Shown here piece by piece: positions 1 through 13,613 of a stretch of DNA of 13,613 bases; positions within the stretch are counted from its first letter, which is position 1, and every line of letters begins with the position of its first letter. The translations under genes were made by a program, and so were the position numbers. The stretch is from a virus (Duplodnaviria; Heunggongvirae; Uroviricota; Caudoviricetes). The notes under the pieces were generated by a model. The model was not told the DNA's origin. It made no database searches and saw nothing but the letters and a program-made list of their open reading frames with translations. Location of the stretch: the IMG/VR virus record IMGVR_UViG_2778261693_000009. One strand, written 5' to 3'.

Positions 1-933
1 ATGGACAACGACAAAATTGATCAACACAGCGACGAAATTGAAGTTGAGAGCGAAGAAAAAGAGCGCGGCAAAAAAATAGAAATAGATGAAGACCGACTCC
101 CCTCCCGGGCGATGGCAATTCATGAGCATATCCGCCAGGATGGTGAAAAAGAGCTGGAACGCGACGCAATGGCGCTACTGTGGTCAGCCATTGCGGCGGG
201 TCTGTCGATGGGCGCTTCGTTACTGGCAAAAGGGATATTTCAAGTCGAACTGGAAGGTGTGCCGGGCAGCTTCTTGCTGGAGAATCTCGGTTATACCTTT
301 GGTTTTATTATCGTCATTATGGCCCGCCAGCAATTATTTACCGAAAATACCGTGACTGCGGTACTACCCGTCATGCAAAAACCGACAATGAGCAACGTCG
401 GCTTACTTATACGGTTATGGGGCGTCGTGCTGCTGGGTAATATTCTCGGGACAGGTATTGCGGCGTGGGCATTTGAATATATGCCTATCTTCAATGAAGA
501 AACTCGCGATGCATTTGTCAAAATCGGCATGGATGTGATGAAGAACACCCCCAGCGAGATGTTTGCCAACGCGATCATTTCCGGCTGGCTGATCGCCACT
601 ATGGTTTGGATGTTTCCTGCAGCGGGTGCGGCAAAGATTGTGGTGATTATATTGATGACCTGGCTTATTGCCCTGGGTGACACCCCCCATATCGTGGTCG
701 GTTCTGTTGAAATCCTCTATCTGGTGTTTAACGGTACGCTGCACTGGAGCGATTTCATCTGGCCCTTCGCACTACCTACTTTAGCGGGGAACATCTGCGG
801 CGGCACCTTTATCTTCGCGTTAATGAGTCATGCACAGATTCGTAACGACATGAGCAATAAGCGTAAAGCAGAAGCACGCCAAAAAGCAGAACGTGCGGAA
901 AACATTAAGAAAAATTATAAAAACCCGGCATAA
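1..933 (+). CDS. yfdC: Host inner-membrane protein of the formate/nitrite transporter (FNT) family, YfdC-like; flanks the integration site
   Basis: 310-aa ORF starting at window position 1, with a charged N-terminus followed by several hydrophobic segments and a K/R-rich tail. The translation matches my recollection of E. coli YfdC, which lies next to argW. GC-normal composition. Confidence 0.75.
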   Translation: MDNDKIDQHSDEIEVESEEKERGKKIEIDEDRLPSRAMAIHEHIRQDGEKELERDAMALLWSAIAAGLSMGASLLAKGIFQVELEGVPGSFLLENLGYTFGFIIVIMARQQLFTENTVTAVLPVMQKPTMSNVGLLIRLWGVVLLGNILGTGIAAWAFEYMPIFNEETRDAFVKIGMDVMKNTPSEMFANAIISGWLIATMVWMFPAAGAAKIVVIILMTWLIALGDTPHIVVGSVEILYLVFNGTLHWSDFIWPFALPTLAGNICGGTFIFALMSHAQIRNDMSNKRKAEARQKAERAENIKKNYKNPA

Positions 934-1008: not shown

Positions 1009-1081
1009 GTCCTCTTAGTTAAATGGATATAACGAGCCCCTCCTAAGGGCTAATTGCAGGTTCGATTCCTGCAGGGGACAC
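1009..1081 (+). tRNA. argW: tRNA-Arg, anticodon CCU (argW-type); 3' CCA not fully encoded
   Basis: Cloverleaf folded by hand: acceptor stem 1009..1015 pairs with 1073..1079 (one G-U pair); D-stem 1018..1021 with 1030..1033; anticodon stem 1035..1039 with 1047..1051; anticodon loop 1040..1046 (CTCCTAA, anticodon CCT at 1042..1044); T-stem 1056..1060 with 1068..1072; T-loop TTCGATT. Discriminator A at 1080 is followed by C-T-T rather than C-C-A. Confidence 0.9.
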
Positions 1082-1107
1082 TTTAAAGACCTTTCTCTAC
1101 ATTTCAC

Positions 1108-1187
1108 TTCATTACATAACCACTTAAAAAACAGTAAGTTATCACCGAATCGGCCTGATTTTCATTTCAGTTAATTTCATGACATTA
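1108..1187 (+). promoter_or_regulatory. int upstream region carrying two sequence boxes that recur upstream of alpA (candidate shared regulator or Int arm-type sites)
   Basis: Box 1 TTCATTACATAAC at 1108..1120 is identical to 3528..3540. Box 2 TAATTTCATGACATTA at 1172..1187 is identical to 3549..3564 (19 of 20 matches when the preceding cag is included). Confidence 0.4.
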
Positions 1188-1266
1188 CAACCTCGTGATG
1201 GTATAAGTGATGGTATTCCCCAGTTCGATATGCAGATACCATCAATTTACCAAAATGAGTACAGAT

Positions 1267-2541
1267 ATGGCCATTAATGTGCTTTCCCCCAAACAGATAG
1301 AAAACGCCAAGCCGAAGACCAATGATTACAAACTTACCGATGGAGGGAGTTTGTATCTACTGGTACGAAAGACTGGTGGAAAATACTGGCGTATGAATTA
1401 TCGTTTTGATGGAAAACAAGTGACATTGGCATTAGGGGTCTACCCAGATGTCTCACTTGCAACAGCGCGGAAACGGCGTGATGAAGCCAGGCAACTACTA
1501 GCCGATGGTCGTGATCCTCGCGAAGCAAAGAAACCCAAAAAGGAAGACCCAATTTCCCCCACGTTCGAGAGTGTTGCCAGAGAGTGGCATAGTGGAACGA
1601 TGGGGCATCCTGAGTGGAAAGAGATCACCCGTAAAAAAATTCTCCGAGAAATGGAAAACCACCTCTTTCCTGCCATCGGTTCAAAGCCTATCGATACGCT
1701 CAAAACCCGTGACTTGATGCCGATGCTGGTTGAGATGACTGAGAAAGGAATTGGTGCCACAACGAGCCGGGTAAAAACCACTATGACGAGCATCTTCCGT
1801 TATGCCGTGCAACGTGGAATTGTCGATTACAACCCTGCCCACGATCTAAAAGGTGCAATTACGACCCCCAAAGTACGACATCGCCCCGCACTACCTCTCG
1901 AACGTTTACCTGAACTGTTAGCGAAAACGAGAAGTTACACGGGAAGACCATTGACTCGCCTAGCAGTTCTATTTTCCCTGCACACTTTTGTGCGATCCAG
2001 CGAACTACGACATGCCAGATGGGAGGAGATCGACATTGAAAATGGGCTATGGACGATACCAGGACAACGTGAAGAGATCGCAGGGGTTAAATTCTCAGAG
2101 CGGGGTGCAAAGATGGGGGCTGCTCATTATGTCCCGCTATCTAGTCAGGCTATCGGGGTACTGGAGGATATAAGGAAAATCAGTGGTGAATATCTGCTGG
2201 TTTTCCCCGGTGACAGCAACCCATATAAACCGATGAGCGAAAACACAGTTAATAAAGCACTGCGAACGATGGGTTACGACACTCAAAGTGATGTTTGCTT
2301 GCATGGGTTCAGGGCGATGGCCTGCTCTGCACTGACCGAATCAGGACTCTGGTCACGCGATGCAGTTGAACGGCAGATGAGTCACCAAGAAAGAAACGAA
2401 GTGCGGGCAGCATATGTGCATCTTGCGCAGCACATGCAGGAACGCCGCAGAATGATGCAATGGTGGTCTAATTATCTGGAACTAAATAAGGACGAATTTC
2501 ATGCTCCTTATGACTTATCAGGTATTAACATTATCAATTAA
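1267..2541 (+). CDS. P4-type site-specific tyrosine integrase (N-terminal Arm-type DNA-binding domain plus C-terminal catalytic domain)
   Basis: Lies immediately downstream of the tRNA. N-terminus MAINVLSPKQIENAKP...DGGSLYLLVRKTGGKYWRMNYRFDGKQVTLALGVYPDVSLATARKRRDEAR is typical of P4-like integrase arm-binding domains. C-terminal region contains HGFRAMA and RAAYVH (candidate catalytic His/Arg/Tyr) and the tail RRRMMQWW seen in argW-targeting IntS-like integrases. Start is ambiguous: in-frame ATGs at 1207, 1255 and 1267, none with a strong SD. Confidence 0.85.
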   Translation: MAINVLSPKQIENAKPKTNDYKLTDGGSLYLLVRKTGGKYWRMNYRFDGKQVTLALGVYPDVSLATARKRRDEARQLLADGRDPREAKKPKKEDPISPTFESVAREWHSGTMGHPEWKEITRKKILREMENHLFPAIGSKPIDTLKTRDLMPMLVEMTEKGIGATTSRVKTTMTSIFRYAVQRGIVDYNPAHDLKGAITTPKVRHRPALPLERLPELLAKTRSYTGRPLTRLAVLFSLHTFVRSSELRHARWEEIDIENGLWTIPGQREEIAGVKFSERGAKMGAAHYVPLSSQAIGVLEDIRKISGEYLLVFPGDSNPYKPMSENTVNKALRTMGYDTQSDVCLHGFRAMACSALTESGLWSRDAVERQMSHQERNEVRAAYVHLAQHMQERRRMMQWWSNYLELNKDEFHAPYDLSGINIIN

Positions 2542-2571
2542 ATTTTCTTATGATTTAAAACAGAGGTCATA

Positions 2572-3453
2572 ATGCAGCATTCAAAAGAGAATGAAACTAT
2601 ATTCTTAGGAAATCTATGGATTGACAAAAAAATACCACCATTAGAATATTGTTCATTTGAACGCGCTTCAAGACTATTAGAATGCGAGATTGATGATTTA
2701 TTACACCTATACGAAATAGGCGCTTTTAATATCGCATTCAAGGCGGATGGACTTGCAGTTAGATTTAATGTTAATTTCCTCTATAAAAATCAGAAAATGG
2801 AAATTGACTTAATTCATCCCGTATTAACTAATCAATCACTAGAGATGGAATTTTCAACAATATGGTATGACCTTAAAGATGACTCCTTTGAACATTTTGA
2901 AAATGGGCTTCAAATTATAGGATTTGCCTGTGGTATTTGGTACGCCGATGATATGATAAGTGACATAAAAAATGGATTAGCTATAGATCCAGATTATGAA
3001 TTCAGGCTTAAACCGGTAAAAATACGAGATAATGTTTTGATGGCAACGGCCTCATATGAAGGAAATAAGGTCATTGATATTCCATTTGAAGATCTTCTTA
3101 TCATGCGAAGAGATTTAGAGTTAATATGGAAATCAGTAAAAACTGGAATTCCTATGCCAAGTTTACTTACGAAAAGAATTTCATCTGAACCTAAAATCCC
3201 CAAGCGATTAAATAACACTGCTGAGCATCATGCAAAAAATAGGGAGGGGTTATTAAATGCAGCCATATATATATTAGCAAAATACCCAAGCGAATGTCGT
3301 GGTGAAAGAAAAGAGATAAGTCCTGAAAAGTGGACTAACGCCATAATTAAACATTTAGGAGAGCTACCTCCAATATTTATCACTAATGAACAAGAAATCT
3401 TAAGAAAATTACGATTAGCGGTTAATCATGCGGGATTAAAACAAAAGGGGTAG
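2572..3453 (+). CDS. Hypothetical protein, 293 aa; AT-rich orphan cargo gene directly downstream of int
   Basis: Clean ORF with SD AGAGG 5 nt upstream of the ATG, 30 bp after the int stop. Markedly AT-rich by eye (roughly low-30s percent GC versus over 50 percent in the flanking core genes). No motif I recognise (no P-loop, no obvious nuclease or HTH signature, no hydrophobic segments). Confidence 0.7.
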   Translation: MQHSKENETIFLGNLWIDKKIPPLEYCSFERASRLLECEIDDLLHLYEIGAFNIAFKADGLAVRFNVNFLYKNQKMEIDLIHPVLTNQSLEMEFSTIWYDLKDDSFEHFENGLQIIGFACGIWYADDMISDIKNGLAIDPDYEFRLKPVKIRDNVLMATASYEGNKVIDIPFEDLLIMRRDLELIWKSVKTGIPMPSLLTKRISSEPKIPKRLNNTAEHHAKNREGLLNAAIYILAKYPSECRGERKEISPEKWTNAIIKHLGELPPIFITNEQEILRKLRLAVNHAGLKQKG

Positions 3454-3519
3454 ACTGAAACAATCTACAGGTAGAGTTGATTACACTACCTTCACAGCAT
3501 TTTGATATCCCCATAGTAT

Positions 3520-3547
3520 CTGCCGTGTTCATTACATAACACGGCAG
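3520..3547 (+). promoter_or_regulatory. Perfect 10-bp inverted repeat (CTGCCGTGTT / AACACGGCAG) with an 8-nt spacer, just upstream of alpA
   Basis: Left arm 3520..3529, right arm 3538..3547. The repeat encloses box 1 (TTCATTACATAAC) and its right arm overlaps the weak SD region of alpA (ATG at 3556). No T-run follows, so it is more likely an operator or translational-control hairpin than a terminator. Confidence 0.4.
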
Positions 3548-3555
3548 GTAATTTC

Positions 3556-3771
3556 ATGACATTAAAAACTTATCCTATCACTGGACATGCCCGCCCACGA
3601 GCTACTGCTGACTTTTTGCAAATAAGTACGGTTACTCTCTGGCGCTGGGAAAAGAACAATCCTGAATTTCCCAAATCTATACGCATTTCAAAACGGGTAT
3701 CTGTTTACGATGCACAAGAAATTAGGCAGTGGGTTAAAGCTCAATCAGCAGGATTGGAGGAAGTAGTGTAA
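3556..3771 (+). CDS. alpA: AlpA-family (prophage CP4-57 regulator-like) small DNA-binding regulator/excisionase-type protein
   Basis: 71-aa protein containing FLQISTVTLWRWEKNNPEFPKSIRISKRVSVYDAQEIRQWV, which fits the AlpA/Xis-type winged-helix pattern. Located between int and the replication module as in P4-like elements. Confidence 0.75.
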   Translation: MTLKTYPITGHARPRATADFLQISTVTLWRWEKNNPEFPKSIRISKRVSVYDAQEIRQWVKAQSAGLEEVV

Positions 3772-3790
3772 TGACAATATTAACAAAGCT

Positions 3791-3810
3791 GGGGAGAAAA
3801 AAGCCTCCCC
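3791..3810. terminator. Candidate bidirectional hairpin between convergent alpA and the RHH gene
   Basis: GGGGAG (3791..3796) / CTCCCC (3805..3810) 6-bp stem with an A-rich loop; on the minus strand the loop reads as a T-run. Weak as a terminator. Confidence 0.25.
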
Positions 3811-3820
3811 AACGTATTAA

Positions 3821-4015
3821 TCAATTCTTTGGTTCTAAACCTCGGCTTTGTAACTCTTTGCGTAGAATGCGCTTGATCCAAGCCGCTAGCGATTCATCGC
3901 CATCCTGCTGTTGTGCTTGTTCCATCAGTTCACGCAGTTCAGGGTCAAGTCGGAACTGGAATGGCGGATTCCCACGTCTTTCATTTTTGTGTGTTGACAC
4001 GTCAATTACACCCAT
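3821..4015 (-). CDS. Ribbon-helix-helix (Arc/MetJ-like) small DNA-binding protein, candidate repressor
   Basis: 64-aa protein; FQFRLDPELRELMEQAQQ...SLAAWIKRILRKEL fits a beta-strand then two helices (RHH fold). Transcribed divergently from the replication operon. Weak or absent SD. Confidence 0.55.
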   Translation of the reverse strand: MGVIDVSTHKNERRGNPPFQFRLDPELRELMEQAQQQDGDESLAAWIKRILRKELQSRGLEPKN

Positions 4016-4021
4016 TGTAAT
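3994..4021 (+). promoter_or_regulatory. Candidate sigma70 promoter for the rightward early/replication operon
   Basis: TTGACA at 3994..3999, 16-nt spacer, TGTAAT at 4016..4021. Overlaps the start of the divergent RHH gene and the TGTAATG/CATTACA repeats. Confidence 0.45.
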
Positions 4022-4049
4022 GTATTTATGTGTAATGACACATTACACA
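4003..4049. promoter_or_regulatory. Operator-like cluster of TGTAATG / CATTACA half-sites
   Basis: TGTAATG at 4016..4022 and 4031..4037, inverted CATTACA at 4041..4047, and related AATTACA at 4004..4010; all overlap the candidate promoter between the RHH gene and the rightward operon. Confidence 0.4.
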
Positions 4050-4131
4050 CAGAAAAACAAAATAGCAACGCCCCGGAGTGTTTGCAGCACCACCGAGGCG
4101 TCTGACCAGCACGTTATATGAGGTAACGAAG

Positions 4132-4308
4132 ATGGCTAAACAGAAGTGTACCTGGTTATTTGCGGCGATCAACCGCAGTCAACGTAATGCCCGTCCGGTG
4201 ATGTTAAGGATCACCGCAGATAACGAGCGATCAGCGCGGCGCAGACTTGCCCCGGACTATGTACTGAGCTTTGCCGGGCGCATTCCCTGCGGAGGTGAAC
4301 ATGCGTAA
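4132..4308 (+). CDS. Small protein resembling the Icd-like (host cell division inhibitor) family of P4-like elements; assignment from memory
   Basis: ATG at 4132 preceded by GAGG at 4121..4124. 58-aa product MAKQKCTWLFAAINRSQRNARPVMLRITADNERSARRRLAPDYVLSFAGRIP. Its 3' end overlaps the next ORF by 8 nt. Confidence 0.45.
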   Translation: MAKQKCTWLFAAINRSQRNARPVMLRITADNERSARRRLAPDYVLSFAGRIPCGGEHA

Positions 4309-4660
4309 TTATCCGCATCCCGGCGAACGCTGGCAGCATGAACGTGGCTGGACGGTCACGATTATCCGATTAATAGAAGCCTCGCCCTCTGTGGCGCTGG
4401 TTAATCCTGAATTCAGCTGTGAAGTGCTGATACGTCATGACAGCGACAACCAGCTTTCTTCCTGCCCTCTGGCATGGTTTGAACAGCGATATACGCGCCT
4501 GTTTGATGTACCGCTCTTTAAGCCTGCACCAGCTCCTGCAGGCGGTAGTGGTTCCGGCCCGCTGACACTGCATCCGTCTGTGCTATTTATCCGCTGGCGG
4601 GAGCGTAGCATATGGCGTTCTGCTGAGCCTGATGACGGTCACTATTCAAAGTTTCTCTGA
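4301..4660 (+). CDS. Hypothetical protein (119 aa), satellite early operon
   Basis: ATG at 4301 with SD GGAGG at 4291..4295; overlaps the upstream gene. GC-normal; no recognised motif. Confidence 0.55.
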   Translation: MRNYPHPGERWQHERGWTVTIIRLIEASPSVALVNPEFSCEVLIRHDSDNQLSSCPLAWFEQRYTRLFDVPLFKPAPAPAGGSGSGPLTLHPSVLFIRWRERSIWRSAEPDDGHYSKFL

Positions 4661-4691
4661 CAAAACACCGCTGAAAACGGAGTAATCCACA

Positions 4692-4976
4692 ATGAATATT
4701 TCAAACGGGCACAACGGTGCTCAGGGCCAGACTTTGCCTGAAAAACACAATACCGGTGCTTTTGCCTATGGGTTGTCAGAGGACGGTTTCGGAAAGCTGA
4801 CCCGCGCAAGAAATGCCTGCGACATGCTCCAGCTTCTCTTTTCTGAATACCCGTCTCAGGCCGGAGCACTGGACGCAGGCTGTGCGCCTGGTGTCGCCGC
4901 GCTGATGGAGTACCTGCGGGCAGATTTGACGGATATTGCACACAGCTGCGCACTGATTGAAGGAGGTGCCAGATGA
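4692..4976 (+). CDS. Hypothetical protein (94 aa), satellite early operon
   Basis: ATG at 4692 with SD-like ACGGAG upstream; its stop overlaps the next start (ATGA). Identity unknown. Confidence 0.5.
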   Translation: MNISNGHNGAQGQTLPEKHNTGAFAYGLSEDGFGKLTRARNACDMLQLLFSEYPSQAGALDAGCAPGVAALMEYLRADLTDIAHSCALIEGGAR

Positions 4977-5356
4977 ACCAGCCGCAGGTTTCCATTTTCC
5001 CGGCAGAAATGACCACCGCGCTTTACCGGCGGGCTATTGCTTCAGCATGGCGGCAGAAAATGCTGAACGAAACTGGCAATGATCAGTATGGTCCGCACAG
5101 CCTGACGGTGGAGCGTATTGAAATGGCCATTGCGCTGCATATCGAGTGCGCACTGATTAACGAGTACGGCGAAGCACAGGGCGCCGCTGCCGCGCTGGCA
5201 CTGCTGACTGACATGCTGGAGCCGTCACTGCTGACCGCGCCGCCGGTACTGACCGCGCGCGGTTGTGAAGTAATGGCGGAGATGTACCGCACGCTTCCGG
5301 CGGCCTTTGATGTCTGCTGCAGTACCGGTGTGACGTTGTATCAGGGGGAAGTATGA
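4973..5356 (+). CDS. Hypothetical protein (127 aa), translationally coupled to the primase gene
   Basis: ATG at 4973 with SD GGAGG; its stop overlaps the primase start (ATGA at 5353..5356). Confidence 0.5.
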   Translation: MNQPQVSIFPAEMTTALYRRAIASAWRQKMLNETGNDQYGPHSLTVERIEMAIALHIECALINEYGEAQGAAAALALLTDMLEPSLLTAPPVLTARGCEVMAEMYRTLPAAFDVCCSTGVTLYQGEV

Positions 5357-8025
5357 CAATACAGACGGTTACGCAGATTTCAGCCGCCGCGCGGGGGAAA
5401 TGGCCCGTTATTCTGCAGATGCTGCGTATTGATGTACCTGAAAACGGCAGGCACGGTCCCTGCCCGAAATGTGGGGGCAAGGATCGTTTTCGCCTTGATG
5501 ACCTTGACGGGCGCGGGACGTGGATCTGCAGCCAGTGTGGCAATGGTGACGGTCTGGATCTGGTTAAGCTCGTAACCGGTTACAGCGTCAGAAAGGCTGC
5601 GCAGGAGGTGGCGCAGGTGCTTAATGTGCCGGATGTGCAGGAACTGCCTGTTAAGCCTGCCAGACAAAAAGCCCCTAAACGCGACATGGGTCTTACCGTG
5701 GCGGCGCTGATGAAAGAGAGCCACACGGGAGAAAGCGCCTATCTGACAGGAAAAGGGTTCGCCGGATACCCGGCCTCTCTGACCGGAAGCGTGCAGCATA
5801 TCAGCGGTAAGGATTTTCCTGCCGGTTCCCTGCTGTTACCACTCACGACCAACACCGGAGCCGTGACCGGTGCACAGCTTATCGCCCCGACGGGTGAAAA
5901 AAGCATACTGCCCGGCAGCACGATGAAAGGCGCGTTTGTGTCGCTCAGCCCGTTACCGTCTGAACCACCGGTACAGGTGGTGATTACCGAAGGTTACGCT
6001 ACGGCGCTGACGGTAAGCCAGCTCACTGCCGGATGCGTAGTGGCTGCCATATCTGCGGGCAACCTGCCCAATGTGGCGCAGTCGCTGCGGGCACGCTGGC
6101 CTGAGGTAAAAATTATCATCGCCGGTGATAACGATTTTCAGGATGGGGGGGAGAATCCCGGCAGAGCCTTTGCTGAACGGGCGGCAAAAGTTGTTGGCGG
6201 CTGGATGACGCTGCCACCAGGAGAGATTAAGGCTGACTGGAATGACTTTCATCGGGAGCACGGTATTACCCGTGCCCGTGAAGCCTTTCGCAACGGTCTG
6301 GTACTGTGCGGGGAAGGCCGCACGCAACTGCCGCACGGGTTCCGTCTTACCCAGGAATATCTCTGGTATGAAAAGCAGGTACAGCGCAACGGTGAGACGG
6401 AGATCCAGAACGTCAAAATATGCAGCCCGCTGCGCGTGACGGCAATCACCTGCGATGCCGATGGCGGTAACTTCGGACGACTGCTGGAATGGGAAGATAC
6501 GTGGGGTGAGCGTCGCCGCTGGGCGATGCCGATGGAAATGCTGAGCGGCAGTGGTGAGGAACTGCGCCGGGTACTGCTGGTTAACGGGCTGTCTTATATC
6601 AGCACTACCGGTGAGGCACGCGCACGCCTGATGGAATATATCTCACTGTGTAAACCGGAACGCCGCGTGACCTGCGTCAGCCGTACTGGCTGGCATGGTC
6701 AGGTTTACGTCCTGCAGGATGAGGTCAGCGGTGAAGGTGCAGAGGGTGTCATTCTCCAGACCACTTCCGTGCAGGGGCGTGATTTCCGCGTGTCGGGCAC
6801 AACAGAGGAATGGCGGGAGAACGTATCCCGCTACTGTACCGGCAACTCTCGCGTGGCATTTGCTGTCAGCCTGGCCTTTGCTGCACCACTGTTACGGCTG
6901 GTTGGTATGGACGGCGGCGGCTACCACCTCAAAGGGGAATCGACAGACGGTAAGACCACCACCATGAAAGCGGCAACCTCCGTCTGCGGCGGGCCTGACT
7001 ACTGGCAGACATGGCGGGCCACCGGCAACGCGCTGGAGGGATGCGCCAGCCGCCGCAACGATGCCGCCATGATGCTTGATGAGATCCGGGAAGTTGACGG
7101 ACGCGAGGCAGGCAATATCGCCTACATGCTGGCAAACGGTCAGGGCAAGGGCCGTGCCGGTACGGACGGTGAGCTGCGTACCCGTAAGCAGTGGCGCCTG
7201 TTGTTCTTTTCAACTGGCGAGTTGTCTCTGACCGAACATGCGGCAAAGGCCGGTGAGCGTACTTTTGCCGGGATGGAAGTCAGGATGATCCAGATCCCCA
7301 GCGATTCCGGGAAATTTGGCGTTTTTGAGGAGCTGCACGGCTTCGACAGCGGCAAGGCTCTGGCAGAGCATCTTGAATGGGCCACGTCCTGCTACTACGG
7401 TTCGCCGTTCCGGGAGTGGCTAAAAGCACTGACCGCTGATCTTAACGGACTAACGGCACAGGCAAAATCGCTGATGAAGGAATATGCTGCCGCCCTGACT
7501 CCGAAAGATGCAGGCAACCAGGTGGGCCGGGCTGTGAATCGCTTTGCACTGGTGGCGATGGCGGGTGAACTGGCAACCCGTCTGGGTATCACCGGCTGGC
7601 CTGAGGGTGAAGCACTGCGGGCAACCCGCGTCTGCCTGAACGCATGGCTGAAAGATCGCGGGCACACCGCCAATCAGGAAGATATTGCCGCACTGGAGCA
7701 GGTTCGCAGTTTCTTTACCGCGAATCAGTACAGCCGCTTTGCAGACTGGTATGACGAGCGCAACCGCCCCGGCAATATGGTGGGCTGGCGCAGGGTGGAG
7801 AAAGGCAGTACCGCGCAGGGCACGGAAGCTGTCACTACGTTCTATGTCATGCCGTCCGGCTGGAAAGAAATCTGCAGGGGATTTGACCCGCGCAAGGTGG
7901 CGCGTCTGTGCGCAGATCGTGGATACCTGCTGCCCTCCACTGATGGCAAACTCCAGACAACCATTCGCCCGCCAGAGATGAATCCCCGCAGGCTCTATGT
8001 CTTCAACAGCGAGGTGCCGGGTTAA
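5353..8025 (+). CDS. P4 alpha-like bifunctional DNA primase-helicase (zinc ribbon, TOPRIM, D5/SF3-type P-loop NTPase)
   Basis: 890-aa ORF with SD GGGGGAAG. Zinc ribbon C37-P-K-C40 ... C59-S-Q-C62. TOPRIM-like ITEGY (nt about 5984..6001) and AGDNDF (nt about 6121..6138). Walker A GESTDGKT (nt about 6934..6960) and Walker B MMLDEI (nt about 7066..7083). Confidence 0.9.
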   Translation: MTIQTVTQISAAARGKWPVILQMLRIDVPENGRHGPCPKCGGKDRFRLDDLDGRGTWICSQCGNGDGLDLVKLVTGYSVRKAAQEVAQVLNVPDVQELPVKPARQKAPKRDMGLTVAALMKESHTGESAYLTGKGFAGYPASLTGSVQHISGKDFPAGSLLLPLTTNTGAVTGAQLIAPTGEKSILPGSTMKGAFVSLSPLPSEPPVQVVITEGYATALTVSQLTAGCVVAAISAGNLPNVAQSLRARWPEVKIIIAGDNDFQDGGENPGRAFAERAAKVVGGWMTLPPGEIKADWNDFHREHGITRAREAFRNGLVLCGEGRTQLPHGFRLTQEYLWYEKQVQRNGETEIQNVKICSPLRVTAITCDADGGNFGRLLEWEDTWGERRRWAMPMEMLSGSGEELRRVLLVNGLSYISTTGEARARLMEYISLCKPERRVTCVSRTGWHGQVYVLQDEVSGEGAEGVILQTTSVQGRDFRVSGTTEEWRENVSRYCTGNSRVAFAVSLAFAAPLLRLVGMDGGGYHLKGESTDGKTTTMKAATSVCGGPDYWQTWRATGNALEGCASRRNDAAMMLDEIREVDGREAGNIAYMLANGQGKGRAGTDGELRTRKQWRLLFFSTGELSLTEHAAKAGERTFAGMEVRMIQIPSDSGKFGVFEELHGFDSGKALAEHLEWATSCYYGSPFREWLKALTADLNGLTAQAKSLMKEYAAALTPKDAGNQVGRAVNRFALVAMAGELATRLGITGWPEGEALRATRVCLNAWLKDRGHTANQEDIAALEQVRSFFTANQYSRFADWYDERNRPGNMVGWRRVEKGSTAQGTEAVTTFYVMPSGWKEICRGFDPRKVARLCADRGYLLPSTDGKLQTTIRPPEMNPRRLYVFNSEVPG

Positions 8026-8052
8026 GGCTTTGCGTGAGTCTTATTTATTAAG

Positions 8053-8247
8053 GGTAACAGGTGAAACAGGTGAAACAACCGTATTTTACAGGGCTGAACC
8101 TGTTCCACCTTCTGAAATAGTGAGGTGGAACAGATGTAACGCCAGCCAATCCGCTGTTCCACCTTGTTACCCGCGATGTTCCACCGGTGCAGTGTATATA
8201 AGTGCTTTATAAAACAAAGCTGTAACACATGTTTCACCTGTTCCACC
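8053..8247. repeat. Iteron cluster; candidate replication origin (P4 ori/crr-like) bound by the alpha protein
   Basis: Nine-mer TGTT(C/T)CACC in both orientations: GGTGAAACA at 8060..8068 and 8069..8077 (tandem, period 9, preceded by degenerate GGTAACA); TGTTCCACC at 8101..8109, 8155..8163, 8177..8185, 8239..8247; inverse GGTGGAACA at 8124..8132; TGTTTCACC at 8230..8238. An AT-rich stretch at 8191..8226 lies between clusters. Non-coding and immediately downstream of the primase-helicase gene. Confidence 0.7.
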
Positions 8248-8335
8248 GCATCAGGGACATAAAGCAGACTGAAACTGAGGGCATTTTTATCTGGCTGGCT
8301 TTCATAGCCACGTCTGAATAACCGCAAGCGCCCGT

Positions 8336-8391
8336 TGTGCCAGCCACCACACACTGAGTACCGATAGTGTGCTTGTGTCAGCCACGACACA
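8336..8391 (+). promoter_or_regulatory. Candidate Ogr/Delta-dependent late promoter (two TGT-N12-ACA dyads) upstream of the sid-like gene
   Basis: TGT(8336..8338)-N12-ACA(8351..8353) and TGT(8374..8376)-N12-ACA(8389..8391), both within 90 bp upstream of the ATG at 8426. The first dyad sits about 55 bp upstream of a plausible transcription start. Confidence 0.35.
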
Positions 8392-8425
8392 ATTGACGTA
8401 ACGAACCAACCCGACAGGAGAAGTC

Positions 8426-9169
8426 ATGAACAACACCGCAGTGAATAACAACCTTTCCACTTTTCCGGCTGTAACGCAGCGGGCACTGGAAACCATGAAC
8501 ACAGCCAGAAACGCATGGCTTGAAGCACGTCGTCAGCAGAAAGCGGCAGCGGATAATATTGCGACAATCCGCCAGCGTCGCGCTGAGATGGAAGCCACGA
8601 CGAACACACTGAATGAGGAGTGGCGCACGCTGTTTCGTGAAAGTCAGGGCGTGGTTTCAAAGGAAATGAAAAAACTGCGCACGGAAATTGCGCTGGGACG
8701 AGAAACGCTTGAGGATTTTGATGAGCTGCTGGCGGCTCAGGAAAGCGAAAATGCACTTTTGCCGCAGAAAGCTGCGGAATTAGCCGGAAAGTATATCCAC
8801 GCGCATAACATTCTTGTGGATATTCGCGCAAAACAAATCTGGGAAGATTTTATGCAATCGCATGGAAAAGCGCTTATTCAGACGCTGAGCCTGCTTAAAT
8901 CCACAATGGGCCGGGAAGCCAGTGCCGTTGTGGGTGTGGTGAATTCAGTTAATGACCCGGACACAGTGCTGAAAGACTTTATTCATAAACATATCACCAG
9001 ACCGGCTCTGGCTAACGATGCGATGCCTGAACAGGACCCGGTGTTTAAACTGGCGGGAATTGCCCCGGATTATGCGGCGCGTCTGGATTTCAGTAATCAA
9101 CTCTCTCCGGCAGCTATGCATAAAATTAAGGTTCGTCAGGAACTTGCTGAGAAGGAGAAAGCAGTATGA
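8426..9169 (+). CDS. Sid-like protein (candidate capsid size-determination scaffold); assignment by size, position and predicted helical character
   Basis: 247 aa (P4 Sid is about 244 aa). SD AGGAG at 8416..8420. Charged, helix-prone sequence rich in A/E/R/K/Q. First gene of a three-gene operon ending in an Ogr/Delta-like gene. Confidence 0.4.
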   Translation: MNNTAVNNNLSTFPAVTQRALETMNTARNAWLEARRQQKAAADNIATIRQRRAEMEATTNTLNEEWRTLFRESQGVVSKEMKKLRTEIALGRETLEDFDELLAAQESENALLPQKAAELAGKYIHAHNILVDIRAKQIWEDFMQSHGKALIQTLSLLKSTMGREASAVVGVVNSVNDPDTVLKDFIHKHITRPALANDAMPEQDPVFKLAGIAPDYAARLDFSNQLSPAAMHKIKVRQELAEKEKAV

Positions 9170-9717
9170 CGGCCCGAGGCACGCCTGACCAGGCACTTAC
9201 CAGTTTTCGGAATGCCCGTATTCTGTGGGCCGGACATAGTGAGAGCCGAAAAGCCGTTGAACAACAGATAGCATCTCTCCTCGCTGCCACAGAAAAACCA
9301 GCAGATTATGCCCGACAGCTCGAATTACTGCGGGAACGTCTGGATGTGCTGAAATGGCAAATTAACTGTGCTGCGCGCGAATGCATTTACTCGCAGCATT
9401 TACTGATGGAAGCCTGCACAGAAGCCGCTCTCAGCAATTTTATGCAGGCGAATGGGGCAGCCCTGACATCTGCACTGGCTCCGTTCCTGAAGGGGCGCGG
9501 GGGGGTTGACGTTGCGTCCCGTATATTACGCAGTGCTCTGGTTCGCCAGCTGACAATAACACCGCCTGAAATTGCCGGGGATTATCGTGAGATCCTGGAT
9601 GAATCCGGTTTGATGCCTGACCCCGGGATGATTCGTGATTGCCAGGGCTCTTACACCCCGGCACAACATCTGCGTTTTCAGCAACGCCTGAATGACATTA
9701 ACGATATACAGGAGTGA
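9166..9717 (+). CDS. Psu-like protein (polarity suppression / capsid decoration family); from size and remembered motifs
   Basis: 183 aa (P4 Psu is about 190 aa). Start overlaps the upstream stop (ATGA). Contains KWQINCAARECIY and FMQANGAALTSALAP, which resemble my recollection of P4 Psu. Shares the local motif FMQxxGxAL with the upstream 247-aa protein. Confidence 0.45.
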   Translation: MTARGTPDQALTSFRNARILWAGHSESRKAVEQQIASLLAATEKPADYARQLELLRERLDVLKWQINCAARECIYSQHLLMEACTEAALSNFMQANGAALTSALAPFLKGRGGVDVASRILRSALVRQLTITPPEIAGDYREILDESGLMPDPGMIRDCQGSYTPAQHLRFQQRLNDINDIQE

Positions 9718-9792
9718 TATTAATGGCACTTAAATGTCCGGAATGCGGTACAGTTGCACACGCCAGAACAGCAGCCTATGAAGCTCCGTCAG

Positions 9793-9796
9793 TTAA
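9793..9796. repeat. IS5 target-site duplication, left copy (TTAA)
   Basis: TTAA immediately precedes the left IS5 inverted repeat. Confidence 0.8.
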
Positions 9797-10991
<1,195 letters not shown>

Positions 10992-10995
10992 TTAA
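10992..10995. repeat. IS5 target-site duplication, right copy (TTAA)
   Basis: TTAA immediately follows the right IS5 inverted repeat. Confidence 0.8.
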
Positions 10996-11214
10996 ACGCT
11001 CGTGGTATCAGTGCCAGAATCTGGAATGTTCCTGCACATTTACGGCACTGGAGAGTGTGGATAAGATAATCATGAAACCCCGACGCAATGAACAGCTATC
11101 AGACAAAGCACAATCCCCGGAAAAACAACAGCAAACACTTAATCGCTATGGCTCCGCGTCAAAACTTTCAAGCCGTCAGCAGATTCCTGTCTGATTAGAA
11201 AGAACGCCCACGTA

Positions 11215-11240
11215 ATCCCGGTCCAGTACCGGGATTTTTT
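11215..11240 (+). terminator. Rho-independent terminator closing the late operon
   Basis: ATCCCGG (11215..11221) / CCGGGAT (11229..11235) 7-bp stem with a 7-nt loop, followed by a T-run (11235..11240). About 20 bp after the Ogr/Delta-like stop. Confidence 0.7.
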
Positions 11241-11402
11241 ATCCCCTTTTCCTGGCTGGCATGAGAGCGAATGAGTGCATGTCTATGGCGCATGAAAACG
11301 CATGAGTCTTATGCACCATTTTTGACGAGAAAACCCTTGTTTGGTGGCTTCTGAGACGATTTATGAGGTGCATGAAAACCAGTCTGTTAAGCGAAGCGGG
11401 CA

Positions 11403-11421
11403 GGCGTGCGGGGCTGCGCAC
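11403..11421. other. Candidate degenerate cos-like sequence (P2/P4-type cohesive end); low confidence
   Basis: GGCGTGCGGGGCTGCGCAC loosely resembles the P2/P4 19-nt cohesive end GGCGAGGCGGGGAAAGCAC as I remember it (about 12 of 19 ungapped). It sits between the late operon and the AT-rich cargo, where cos lies in P4. Confidence 0.2.
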
Positions 11422-11621
11422 GGAGGCGGAATAAATAGTAATGCTATGGATGCTGGGCACACATAGATAAGAGGTTTACAAATAGTATGCTTGTTGTCGT
11501 AACTGATAGGGGTCTATCAAAATCAGAAATCAAAAACAGTATTTCGTGTAATTTATAGAATTTTCACAGAAAACATATACAATCGTTTCTGATACAGGAG
11601 TCTGATTAAGTTGGGATTATT

Positions 11622-13613
11622 ATGGCCATTCAAAAAAAACAAACAAAAAATTCTGAAAGAAGTATTAAAAGCCAGTTAGAAAAACTTACGGCTGAAAAAG
11701 CCATTTCCGAATATATTTGGAATGCTTTTGATGCTGAAGCCACAAATATTAATATTACAGTTATCCCAAATGGTTTAAGTGGGATATCTTCAATAGAAAT
11801 TATTGATGATGGAACTGGCATCGATTTTAATGAAGTCGATGAAACTTTCGGGCAGTTTTTAGATTCCAAGAAGAAAGCAAAACGAACGCCTGTCACAAGA
11901 GGACATAAAGGTAAGGGGCGGTTTTCATTCTGTAAATTCGCTGATAAAGCCGAATGGACTAGCTGGCGTAATGGAGAGAAATTTACGCTAACTATAGTTT
12001 CATCACATCTAAATGAATATGAGCATTCAGATTTATCCATGTGCTCTCATAAAAATTCTGGAACTAAGGTGGTCTTTAATCCTGTAACAATTACTGAAGA
12101 TTATTTTAATTCAATAGTTATACCCTATTTGCAGAACGATATATCTTGGCTGTTGGTGGCCAAACCAAAATTAAAATTAAAAATAAACGGTCAATCTATT
12201 AGCCCAATAGGATATGCTTCAACTTCAAATAATATTGAATTTGGAGAGGTCGATTTTAATTCAAAAACAGTTATATGGTCTAGTAAACCTGTAGTAGAAA
12301 AATCATATATATATTATTTAAATAATCAAGGTGATATTGTTTACAAAGAGTTTTCTGAGATGAACAAAAAAGGATTTGATTGTTCATCCTATGTCACATC
12401 AAGTTGGTTTGATGATTTTTCTGAATCAAACGACTTGTTTAATGAATCGAAAAACAGTGTTGACTCAGATATTTTTAAATACATTAGCCTACATGTTAAA
12501 GGTAATTTAAGGGAAGAGTATAGAAAATATAAAAATAATGCAGCAGATCAACTCATTCAAAACTATTTAAATGAGGGTGTGTTTCCAGAATATAAAGGTG
12601 AGAATAGAATGCTCAATGAATTTAAAAGGAATCAACTCATTGAAACTATAAAGATAATTTATGAGGCCGAACCTCAAATTTTCTCCACACTAAACAAGAA
12701 ACAAAAAAAAATCTTAATTAAACTATTAGATAGAATTGTTGAAACCAATAATTTATCCAGTCTCTTTGACATTTTTGAAGGTATAGTTTCCCTATCCGAA
12801 GATGAGGTTGATAAACTTTCATCTGTAATAAAAAGAAGTTCACTTTCTAATATTACGAGGACTTTGTCATTTATTAATGATAGACTGGATGTTATTGATT
12901 ATTTTAAAAAAATACTATATGAGAAAAAGAAAGAATCATATGAAGTAAAGCACATTCAAAAGAGCATAGAAAATAATTTATGGCTTTTTGGAGAGCAATA
13001 CACTCTAGTTGCATCAGAAGATGATAAGTTTGATAAAGCTCTTAGAAAGTATCTGGAGAAGACTAAAGGTTTTAACGAAGCACATTATAATAAGTATAGT
13101 GTACAGCATCCAGATAAAAATAAAGAAATGGATATATTTGCAGCACAAAAAATAAAGCGTTACACTGAAAATAATGAAGAATATTTTCATTGCATTGTGA
13201 TTGAATTAAAGAAACCAAGTATAAAACTCGGTGATGAAGAACTCGCACAAATAAAGTTATATAAAAATATAATATCTGCGACTGATGAATTTAAAGACGA
13301 TAATACAAAATGGGATTTTATTTTAGTGGGAAATGATATATCTAATAGCAATATCACTGCTGCAAATTTATCATCAGATCTAGAAACGAATAAAATACAT
13401 GGTGAGTTTGGCTTGGTTCAAAAAACAACAAATATGAAAATTTACGTCAAAACGTGGAAGCAAATTTTAAATGAGTATGATCTTAGATATAACGACCTGA
13501 TCGATAAGCTTAAGTTGAAAGAGTTAGAAATTGCAGAAGATATGGGGCCTGATGAACTCACGGCAAAAATTTTAGAAAAAACGGCAAGACTTCCGACTTC
13601 GATACAGGCTTAG
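11622..13613 (+). CDS. GHKL-family (Bergerat-fold) ATPase with a C-terminal PD-(D/E)xK-like putative nuclease region; AT-rich cargo gene and candidate anti-phage factor
   Basis: 663-aa complete ORF whose stop codon is the last three bases of the window. Weak SD GGGA 5 nt upstream. N-terminal motifs: E30-x3-N34-x2-D37-A38 (EYIWNAFDA), D62-D-G64-T-G66 (G1 box), G94-x2-G97-x-G99-R-F (G2-like). C-terminal motifs: D504 (EMDIF) ... E528-L-K530 (IVIELKK) ... Q543. Very AT-rich by eye (about 30 percent GC), unlike the satellite core. Confidence 0.75.
   Translation: MAIQKKQTKNSERSIKSQLEKLTAEKAISEYIWNAFDAEATNINITVIPNGLSGISSIEIIDDGTGIDFNEVDETFGQFLDSKKKAKRTPVTRGHKGKGRFSFCKFADKAEWTSWRNGEKFTLTIVSSHLNEYEHSDLSMCSHKNSGTKVVFNPVTITEDYFNSIVIPYLQNDISWLLVAKPKLKLKINGQSISPIGYASTSNNIEFGEVDFNSKTVIWSSKPVVEKSYIYYLNNQGDIVYKEFSEMNKKGFDCSSYVTSSWFDDFSESNDLFNESKNSVDSDIFKYISLHVKGNLREEYRKYKNNAADQLIQNYLNEGVFPEYKGENRMLNEFKRNQLIETIKIIYEAEPQIFSTLNKKQKKILIKLLDRIVETNNLSSLFDIFEGIVSLSEDEVDKLSSVIKRSSLSNITRTLSFINDRLDVIDYFKKILYEKKKESYEVKHIQKSIENNLWLFGEQYTLVASEDDKFDKALRKYLEKTKGFNEAHYNKYSVQHPDKNKEMDIFAAQKIKRYTENNEEYFHCIVIELKKPSIKLGDEELAQIKLYKNIISATDEFKDDNTKWDFILVGNDISNSNITAANLSSDLETNKIHGEFGLVQKTTNMKIYVKTWKQILNEYDLRYNDLIDKLKLKELEIAEDMGPDELTAKILEKTARLPTSIQA

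Follow-up and report, generated by a model that had tools for sequence, protein, structure and literature searches.

The window (the whole stretch of 13,613 nucleotides analysed here) opens in chromosomal DNA with yfdC (1..933, + strand), an open reading frame of the formate/nitrite transporter family that is conserved on the chromosome upstream of argW and annotated as yfdC in all matching genomes. The next gene is argW, encoding tRNA-Arg(CCU) (1009..1080, + strand), which was recognised by both Rfam RF00005 and ARAGORN and is complete through the discriminator, A73. The RF00005 match to 1009-1080 covered model positions 1-71 of 71 at 63.4 bits (gathering score 29), and ARAGORN called a tRNA-Arg with anticodon CCT at 1009-1081, one base longer than the Rfam call because C1081 was taken in. 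The acceptor 3' strand, AGGGGAC (1073-1079), pairs with GTCCTCT (1009-1015); A1080 is position 73 (the discriminator), C1081 is position 74 and 1082-1084 are TTT. The gene ends ...GGGGAC-A-C-TTT instead of ...A-CCA, i.e., its discriminator is followed by C-T-T (A1080-C-T-T) and not by a templated C74-C75-A76. A preliminary description of this DNA had placed the acceptor 3' strand and discriminator at 1073..1080, followed by C-T-T, and had written the end as GGGGACAC-TTT, which is exact on direct reading. The TTT at 1082..1084 (+ strand) represents the first element-specific bases, so that positions 75-76 are TT where other alleles have CA. The body of the tRNA is identical to that of K-12 argW and is unchanged in all carriers of the element, and the Arg-CCU tRNA gene is present as a single copy (at one place in the genome of the carrier strain PM4). 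PGAP annotates argW as 72 nt in element carriers and as 75 nt in the K-12 derivative MC1061 and in the unoccupied allele.

The remainder of the window (1082..13613, + strand) holds a P4-like satellite prophage, from its left end through most of its body, as judged from gene content and from 99.2-99.6% identity, apart from an IS5 insertion, to positions 3002-15415 of L004 (the argW-linked element of strain PRO_A-1407-6W-A). The P4-like core set (integrase, alpha primase/helicase, psu/sid and delta) is present by Pfam and by the annotation of relatives. A P4-type tyrosine integrase of 424 aa is encoded at 1267..2541 (+ strand; Pfam Arm-DNA-bind_3, Phage_int_M and Phage_integrase), an alpha-type primase/helicase at 5353..8025 (+ strand; Pfam Zn_Ribbon_Prim, Toprim_3 and DUF927) and two adjacent Psu-family proteins at 8426-9169 and 9166-9717 (+ strand; Pfam Psu, E = 2e-9 and 1.3e-44). 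The Ogr/Delta-like zinc-finger gene annotated in relatives is split in the window by IS5 (1195 bp, 9797..10991, - strand), which is flanked by a TTAA duplication (9793-9796 and 10992-10995) and whose transposase carries Pfam DDE_Tnp_1 and DUF772 and matches IS5 in E. coli genomes. Comparison of the window with L004 and L001 (the PM4 locus) by blastn likewise revealed a 1195-bp insertion with a 4-bp overlap, and an IS5 insertion at this satellite site was found nowhere in the E. coli genome collection. With this activator gene split, the window's satellite may have lost the ability to switch on helper late genes. The window stops at the stop codon of a cargo gene, ~0.54 kb short of the right attachment site (attR) as judged from L004.

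This cargo gene (11622..13613, + strand), in the variable region before attR, encodes a GHKL-type ATPase of 663 aa (Pfam HATPase_c_3, E = 2.5e-20) with a weakly HSDR_N-like C-terminal part and a weak PADLOC match to REase_II, and is possibly a candidate for an uncharacterised anti-phage gene. In PM4 the equivalent position is taken by another cargo gene, which encodes a YecA-family protein. Directly after the integrase gene, a 293-aa open reading frame (2572-3453) is conserved in relatives as a "hypothetical protein" and gave no Pfam or PADLOC match. Three copies of a 26-nt direct-repeat family (CAGTTAATTTCATGACATTACAACCT and variants) lie at 1100-1125, 1168-1193 and 3545-3570 (coordinates converted from L001). 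The first two copies separate the tRNA from int, and the third lies beyond the gene that follows int. All three are candidate binding sites, of the arm type for the integrase or for a regulator.

Islander looks for an intact tDNA adjoining a tyrosine integrase gene, for a displaced 3' tDNA piece placed in direct orientation at the other end of the island and for restoration of a complete, functional tDNA. Here argW (1009-1080) adjoins the integrase gene (1267-2541) on the same strand, and the sequence of the tRNA gene is rebuilt through position 74 only, with CCA absent. A scan for promoters and terminators between the tRNA and int returned nothing in the occupied allele and likewise nothing in the unoccupied allele, and a search of phage and plasmid records for the element in a packaged form or as a plasmid returned distant integrase similarity only.

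The argW 3' end across E. coli genomes

The yfdC-argW region has a match in each of the 5426 complete E. coli genomes, and in all but 74 of them similarity to the window ends at or before 1081. The stop falls at exactly 1081 in nearly all sampled rows of this comparison, and similarity continues beyond only if the element is present. The preliminary description had proposed that the terminal bases are element-derived and that the crossover lies at the very 3' end of the tRNA, and this agrees with similarity to other E. coli that stops at 1081 and a P4-like satellite beyond.

To count 3' ends we used a tRNA-only 32-mer with an E-value cut that admitted perfect matches only; the query was confined to the tRNA since a longer one could also match the attR flank in carriers. 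The 32-mer ending ...GGGGACACCA (i.e., a tRNA end of ...ACACCA) matched perfectly in 5304 of the 5426 genomes, and the same 32 bases matched over their full length with one mismatch in 45. In 62 genomes the tRNA is followed by CTTTAAAGACC... (junction ...ACAC/TTTAAAG, the slash marking the joint), always together with this integrase. Among metagenome contigs the same junction was found directly after the tRNA in six, and a seventh copy lies behind the right end of another island. When IntS-type variants are included, argW lacks CCA in at least 64 of the 5426 genomes (~1.2%), and in at most 71 when all partial matches are counted; these CCA-less genes, in ~1.2-1.3% of complete genomes, come from at least two unrelated integrase families.

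The unoccupied allele of strain MRE162 consists of yfdC, a 75-nt tRNA that includes CCA and then dsdC, with the CCA followed by TCCTTGTG. About a thousand genomes have the joint ...ACACCA/TCCTTGTG directly behind the 3' half of the tRNA, and most of the listed examples lie on an annotated tRNA. The preliminary description had stated that E. coli tRNA genes normally encode CCA, which for argW holds in at least 5304 of 5426 genomes and in MRE162, and had turned to an unoccupied argW for the decision between a native and an acquired end. Because the unoccupied allele and the census have CCA, the non-CCA end is not a native feature. That it is a native argW polymorphism unrelated to integration, or a sequencing or assembly error, has next to no chance of being true and was ruled out by the unoccupied CCA allele and the census. 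Nothing was found in its favour. The CTT end was never met apart from the satellite, the sequence departs from the unoccupied allele at position 75 and stays different for >12 kb, and the identical junction recurs in the 62 complete genomes and in the six metagenome contigs that have it directly after the tRNA.

The right end of the satellite and the probable position of the crossover

The block TTCGATTCCTGCAGGG(G)ACAC, which runs from the T loop to position 74 of the tRNA (1062..1081, + strand), is copied at the right end of the satellite, outside the window. Sequence reading located these attR copies at L001 31536, L004 15950 and L006 31408, and also in L011 and L024. In PM4 (L001) the copy reads ...TTCGATTCCTGCAGGGACACCA/TCCTTGTG... 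and is followed by dsdC; in L004 it reads ...TTCGATTCCTGCAGGGACACCA/TCCCGCCG... and is followed by a second island; and in L006 and L011 it reads ...GGGACACCA/GATACCC.... The displaced end at the right end of the satellite in near-identical relatives is TTCGATTCCTGCAGGG-ACACCA, and ...ACACCA at attR was seen in PM4, PRO_A-1407, CFSAN064035 and one metagenome contig. The attR copy with GGG has an exact match in 22 E. coli genomes, never on an annotated tRNA. Within the window, which ends inside the element, searches with a 22-mer (3 mismatches) and a 14-mer (2 mismatches) found no second tRNA 3' fragment. The displaced 3' end that the preliminary description had predicted at attR is thus present in relatives 99% identical to the window, which itself ends before attR.

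In Enterobacter soli (L024 20813-20860) a GGG attR copy is followed by ACACTTT (ACACTTTAACTTCC), not ACACCA; either a tandem second element of the CTT type lies there, or the displaced end was already without CCA. In strain EC2 (NZ_CP058571.1, 1487069-1488771) an attL-type junction and a GGG attR copy are only ~1.6 kb apart, which suggests that the locus is a heavily deleted satellite remnant.

Two markers distinguish the integrated ends. The first is the G run, which is GGGG in every functional tRNA (attL) and GGG in every attR copy of the satellite; GGG was found at attR in four different right-flank contexts (TCCTTGTG, TCCCGCCG, GATACCC and that of Enterobacter soli). The second is the pair of bases after ACAC: host DNA has CA there, element DNA has TT. 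In E. coli carriers, attL combines GGGG with TTT and attR combines GGG with CCA. As these markers flank GGGACAC, we place the exchange between them, in a putative crossover (overlap) segment at tRNA positions 68-74 (1075..1081, + strand). Parsimony across the integrated forms points to a crossover inside GGGACAC, and the three G at attR against four in the tRNA, in four right flanks, confine the exchange to the interval bounded by the G run and position 75, which fits the 3'-terminal crossover of the preliminary description. The att sites of tyrosine recombinases have an overlap of 6-8 bp, identical in attP and attB, between core-type binding sites. The block common to both ends shrinks to 6 bp (GGGACA) in the E. 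soli lineage, so the length of the overlap is uncertain. Inverted-repeat core sites were not recognised around GGGACAC. A free attP junction (GGG or GGGG, then ACACTTTAAAG) had 0 matches in IMG/VR viral contigs, and the same search of metagenome contigs returned seven attL copies and two three-G matches, with no attP among them; the two three-G matches were rejected as attP and attributed to chance, since the DNA around them is unrelated and in one case clearly codes for protein.

P4-type integrases are usually assumed to exchange strands in the T loop. A classical crossover there (at TTCGATT) would make the DNA from the T loop to the tRNA end in the window satellite-derived, and the repeat common to attL and attR does start exactly at the first T-loop base. 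The Islander paper also classes such sites as T-loop or T/acceptor-junction sites (PMC4383910). Such a crossover would predict an attP with four G, ...CAGGGGACACTTT, and not the three-G form, ...CAGGGACACTTT. It would also make the CCTGCAGGG-ACACCA at attR host DNA, so that one and the same G would have been lost in separate events in at least four flank contexts. Moreover, the junction in CFSAN064035 is preceded by CTGCAGGGGACAC alone, with no T loop, and the bases to the left of TTCGATT vary among the attR copies examined. We thus consider a T-loop crossover very unlikely, and rejected it on the repeated one-G deletions that it requires and on the CFSAN064035 junction.

Integrases 77-87% identical to that of the window adjoin this tRNA gene in Buttiauxella, Rahnella, Scandinavium, Pantoea, Enterobacter and Citrobacter, and the left arms of these relatives align ungapped with the window. 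At positions 74-76, six loci (five of which the alignment shows) have CCA, the window and one metagenome relative have CTT, Citrobacter has ATC, and Pantoea and E. soli have ATA. Because this triplet varies by substitution in ungapped arms, it is part of the element arm and lies outside the exchanged segment. On this alignment, the triplet has changed several times by substitution within the integrase clade. Just upstream of integrase relatives, CCA is kept in 67 of 70 tRNAs (a sample that includes a few outer genes of tRNA clusters), and all three exceptions fall in the argW clade. Selection to keep CCA is probably weak at the argW target. The tRNA-Arg(CCU) reads only the rare AGG codon, and tRNA-Arg(UCU) can read AGG too. 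One of the records (L021, CACSKA010000009.1) is labelled Chryseobacterium sp. 18061 and has an enterobacterial-type argW locus with an integrase 81% identical to that of the window; this assembly is probably contaminated or mislabelled.

The probable integration scar and the predicted maturation of the argW transcript

We consider it highly probable that 1009-1084 of the window is the attL of a P4-like satellite integrated in argW, i.e., an integration scar left by an attP that restores the gene incompletely. The integrase would exchange strands within ~6-7 bp, GGGACA(C), that cover the acceptor-stem 3' strand and the discriminator (positions 68-74). The attP would be an imperfect copy of the tRNA end, TTCGATTCCTGCAGGG-ACAC, that has one G fewer, stops at C74 and continues with TTTAAAG instead of CA; the expected site is ...TTCGATTCCTGCAGGGACACTTTAAAGACC..., with three G. 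Upon integration, the host tRNA body would be kept through position 74, the encoded C75-A76 would be replaced by satellite DNA, and the original ...ACACCA end would move with its native flank to the right end of the satellite (attR), beyond the window. The regenerated argW would lack CCA because the copy of the tRNA end in attP does not reach that far. The three bases after the discriminator, lying outside the exchanged segment, would be unconstrained by recombination and would have drifted (CCA, CTT, ATC, ATA).

The argW transcript (...ACAC-UUUAAAG) would be expected to undergo 3' trimming by RNase BN/Z or 3' exoribonucleases and then to receive its CCA from the CCA-adding enzyme. Other strains have a CCA that is part of the transcript itself. 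The preliminary description had likewise proposed that this tRNA would depend on the CCA-adding enzyme, as established tRNA biology would predict. The tRNAs of phage T4 that have no encoded CCA are matured in E. coli by trimming and CCA addition, through RNase BN and the CCA-adding enzyme. Like these tRNAs, the argW transcript would be a precursor in E. coli without an encoded CCA and would need the same two steps; unlike the T4 tRNAs, which are phage-encoded and expressed during infection, it comes from a chromosomal housekeeping tRNA gene that has been converted. In K-12, every tRNA gene has an encoded CCA and is considered to do without RNase BN/Z (PMC2777011). Aberrant 3' ends, for example CU, can be removed by the RNase BN of E. 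coli (PMC7479834).

The scar could also act as a functional knock-down, with the CCA-less precursor matured poorly, argW effectively disabled and AGG read by tRNA-Arg(UCU). Such an effect would arise from the loss of the 3'-CCA contact with RNase P and from the need for extra trimming and CCA addition. Wegscheid and Hartmann (2006, as cited in PMC5143459) are said to have shown that the 3'-CCA of the precursor is used in vivo by RNase P of E. coli, and 5' maturation of argW may therefore slow. A knock-down would gain weight from the one copy of this tRNA gene in the PM4 genome, and a low-cost target would fit the loss of CCA three times in the argW clade and never beside more distant integrase relatives. 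A further point in favour is that AGG is the rarest codon and can be read by argU. However, the tRNA body has stayed unchanged in all carriers, and E. coli copes with the CCA-less T4 tRNAs; we consider a knock-down rather unlikely. Partially reduced function of argW is a serious alternative.

With an integration scar as the preferred reading, what is found at argW is minor and largely predictable: this is an ordinary tRNA-targeting satellite, with no new kind of element or mechanism. The case contributes a chromosomal tRNA gene of E. coli that was rebuilt lacking CCA, the frequency of this form in the population and a map of the crossover based on markers. The gene is a small documented exception to the textbook rule that every E. 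coli tRNA gene templates CCA, and the crossover of an argW-specific P4-type integrase is mapped, by inference, to tRNA positions 68-74. The map also accounts for the one-base-deleted "damaged" tDNA fragment that island-finding software must tolerate. Naturally occurring carriers, PM4 among them, should have a chromosomal tRNA that needs 3' trimming and the CCA-adding enzyme, and they would be useful as substrates for the in vivo study of RNase BN/Z and cca. A broader idea, which we regard as speculative and unlikely to be right, is that CCA-stripping elements are a recurrent natural source of CCA-less precursors of chromosomal tRNAs in E. coli and as such part of the selection for RNase BN/Z and the CCA-adding enzyme, and that the satellite may gain as well. 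If so, the gain could come from read-through of argW into int or from tuned decoding of AGG in lysogens.

Comparison with other elements at tRNA genes

Tyrosine integrases that target tRNA genes and P4-like satellites are well known (PMC4383910, PMC8628076). The element in the window resembles P4 at leuX in that a P4-type integrase (Arm-DNA-bind_3, central and catalytic domains) is encoded immediately downstream of the target tRNA in the same orientation, alpha primase, the Psu family and delta are present, and the repeat spans the T loop to the tRNA 3' end. Satellite phage P4 itself integrates at leuX, with its core at the tRNA-Leu 3' end. Unlike P4, the satellite here targets argW, and its copy of the tRNA end is one G short and stops at C74, with a regenerated gene that lacks CCA.

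The same gene and the same 3'-terminal sublocation are used by IntS prophages of the KplE1 (CPS-53)/HK620 type, whose integrase and element type are different. The KplE1 core at argW is the 16-nt CTGCAGGGGACACCAT (PMC2951348), which overlaps the block used by the satellite. Unlike the satellite copy, the IntS core includes CCA plus T, and argW in K-12 therefore keeps its CCA. IntS-type (KplE1-like) variants at argW also rebuild the tRNA without CCA in two strains: in fM51a (L005 3013-3040) the end reads ...ACAC/TTGTTTTGAG, i.e., ACAC/TTG, and in LZYWN_4 (L098 2518-2545) it reads ...GGGGAC-G-C/TTGTTTTGAG, i.e., GAC-G-C/TTG, with the discriminator changed from A to G.

Deletions and shortened repeats of this kind have been described at other islands. 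Hudson, Lau and Williams (2015), citing Williams (2003), note that the displaced tDNA fragment has a small deletion, located 3 bp upstream of the discriminator (PMC4383910). The position of that deletion in the "damaged" Islander fragments is that of the G missing (G70) from the satellite attR copies; unlike the Islander reading of damage, the markers here put the deletion in the attP of the element, where it is usable for mapping the crossover. In two Klebsiella islands the direct repeat lacks the CCA end (bioRxiv 10.1101/2020.11.02.365908). These islands likewise integrate in tDNA with a repeat that stops before CCA; they differ from the satellite in host and targets, and that one-sentence report is silent on the regenerated gene and its maturation.

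Tandem arrays occur at argW in both orders (satellite-island and island-satellite), and also as a P22-like IntS prophage followed by the satellite; the array positions are L004 4069, 15957 and 25450, L013 3071, and L006 20001 with L097 20587-20661. These arrays agree with a 3'-terminal crossover. In L013 the satellite lies behind the right end of another island. In CFSAN064035 the junction CTGCAGGGGACAC/TTT lies behind a P22-like IntS prophage: the tRNA beside IntS is annotated as 75 nt (with CCA), and the ACAC/TTT junction is 40 kb away at the right end of the prophage. In principle, the CCA of argW could be "repaired" by an IntS phage that arrives later.
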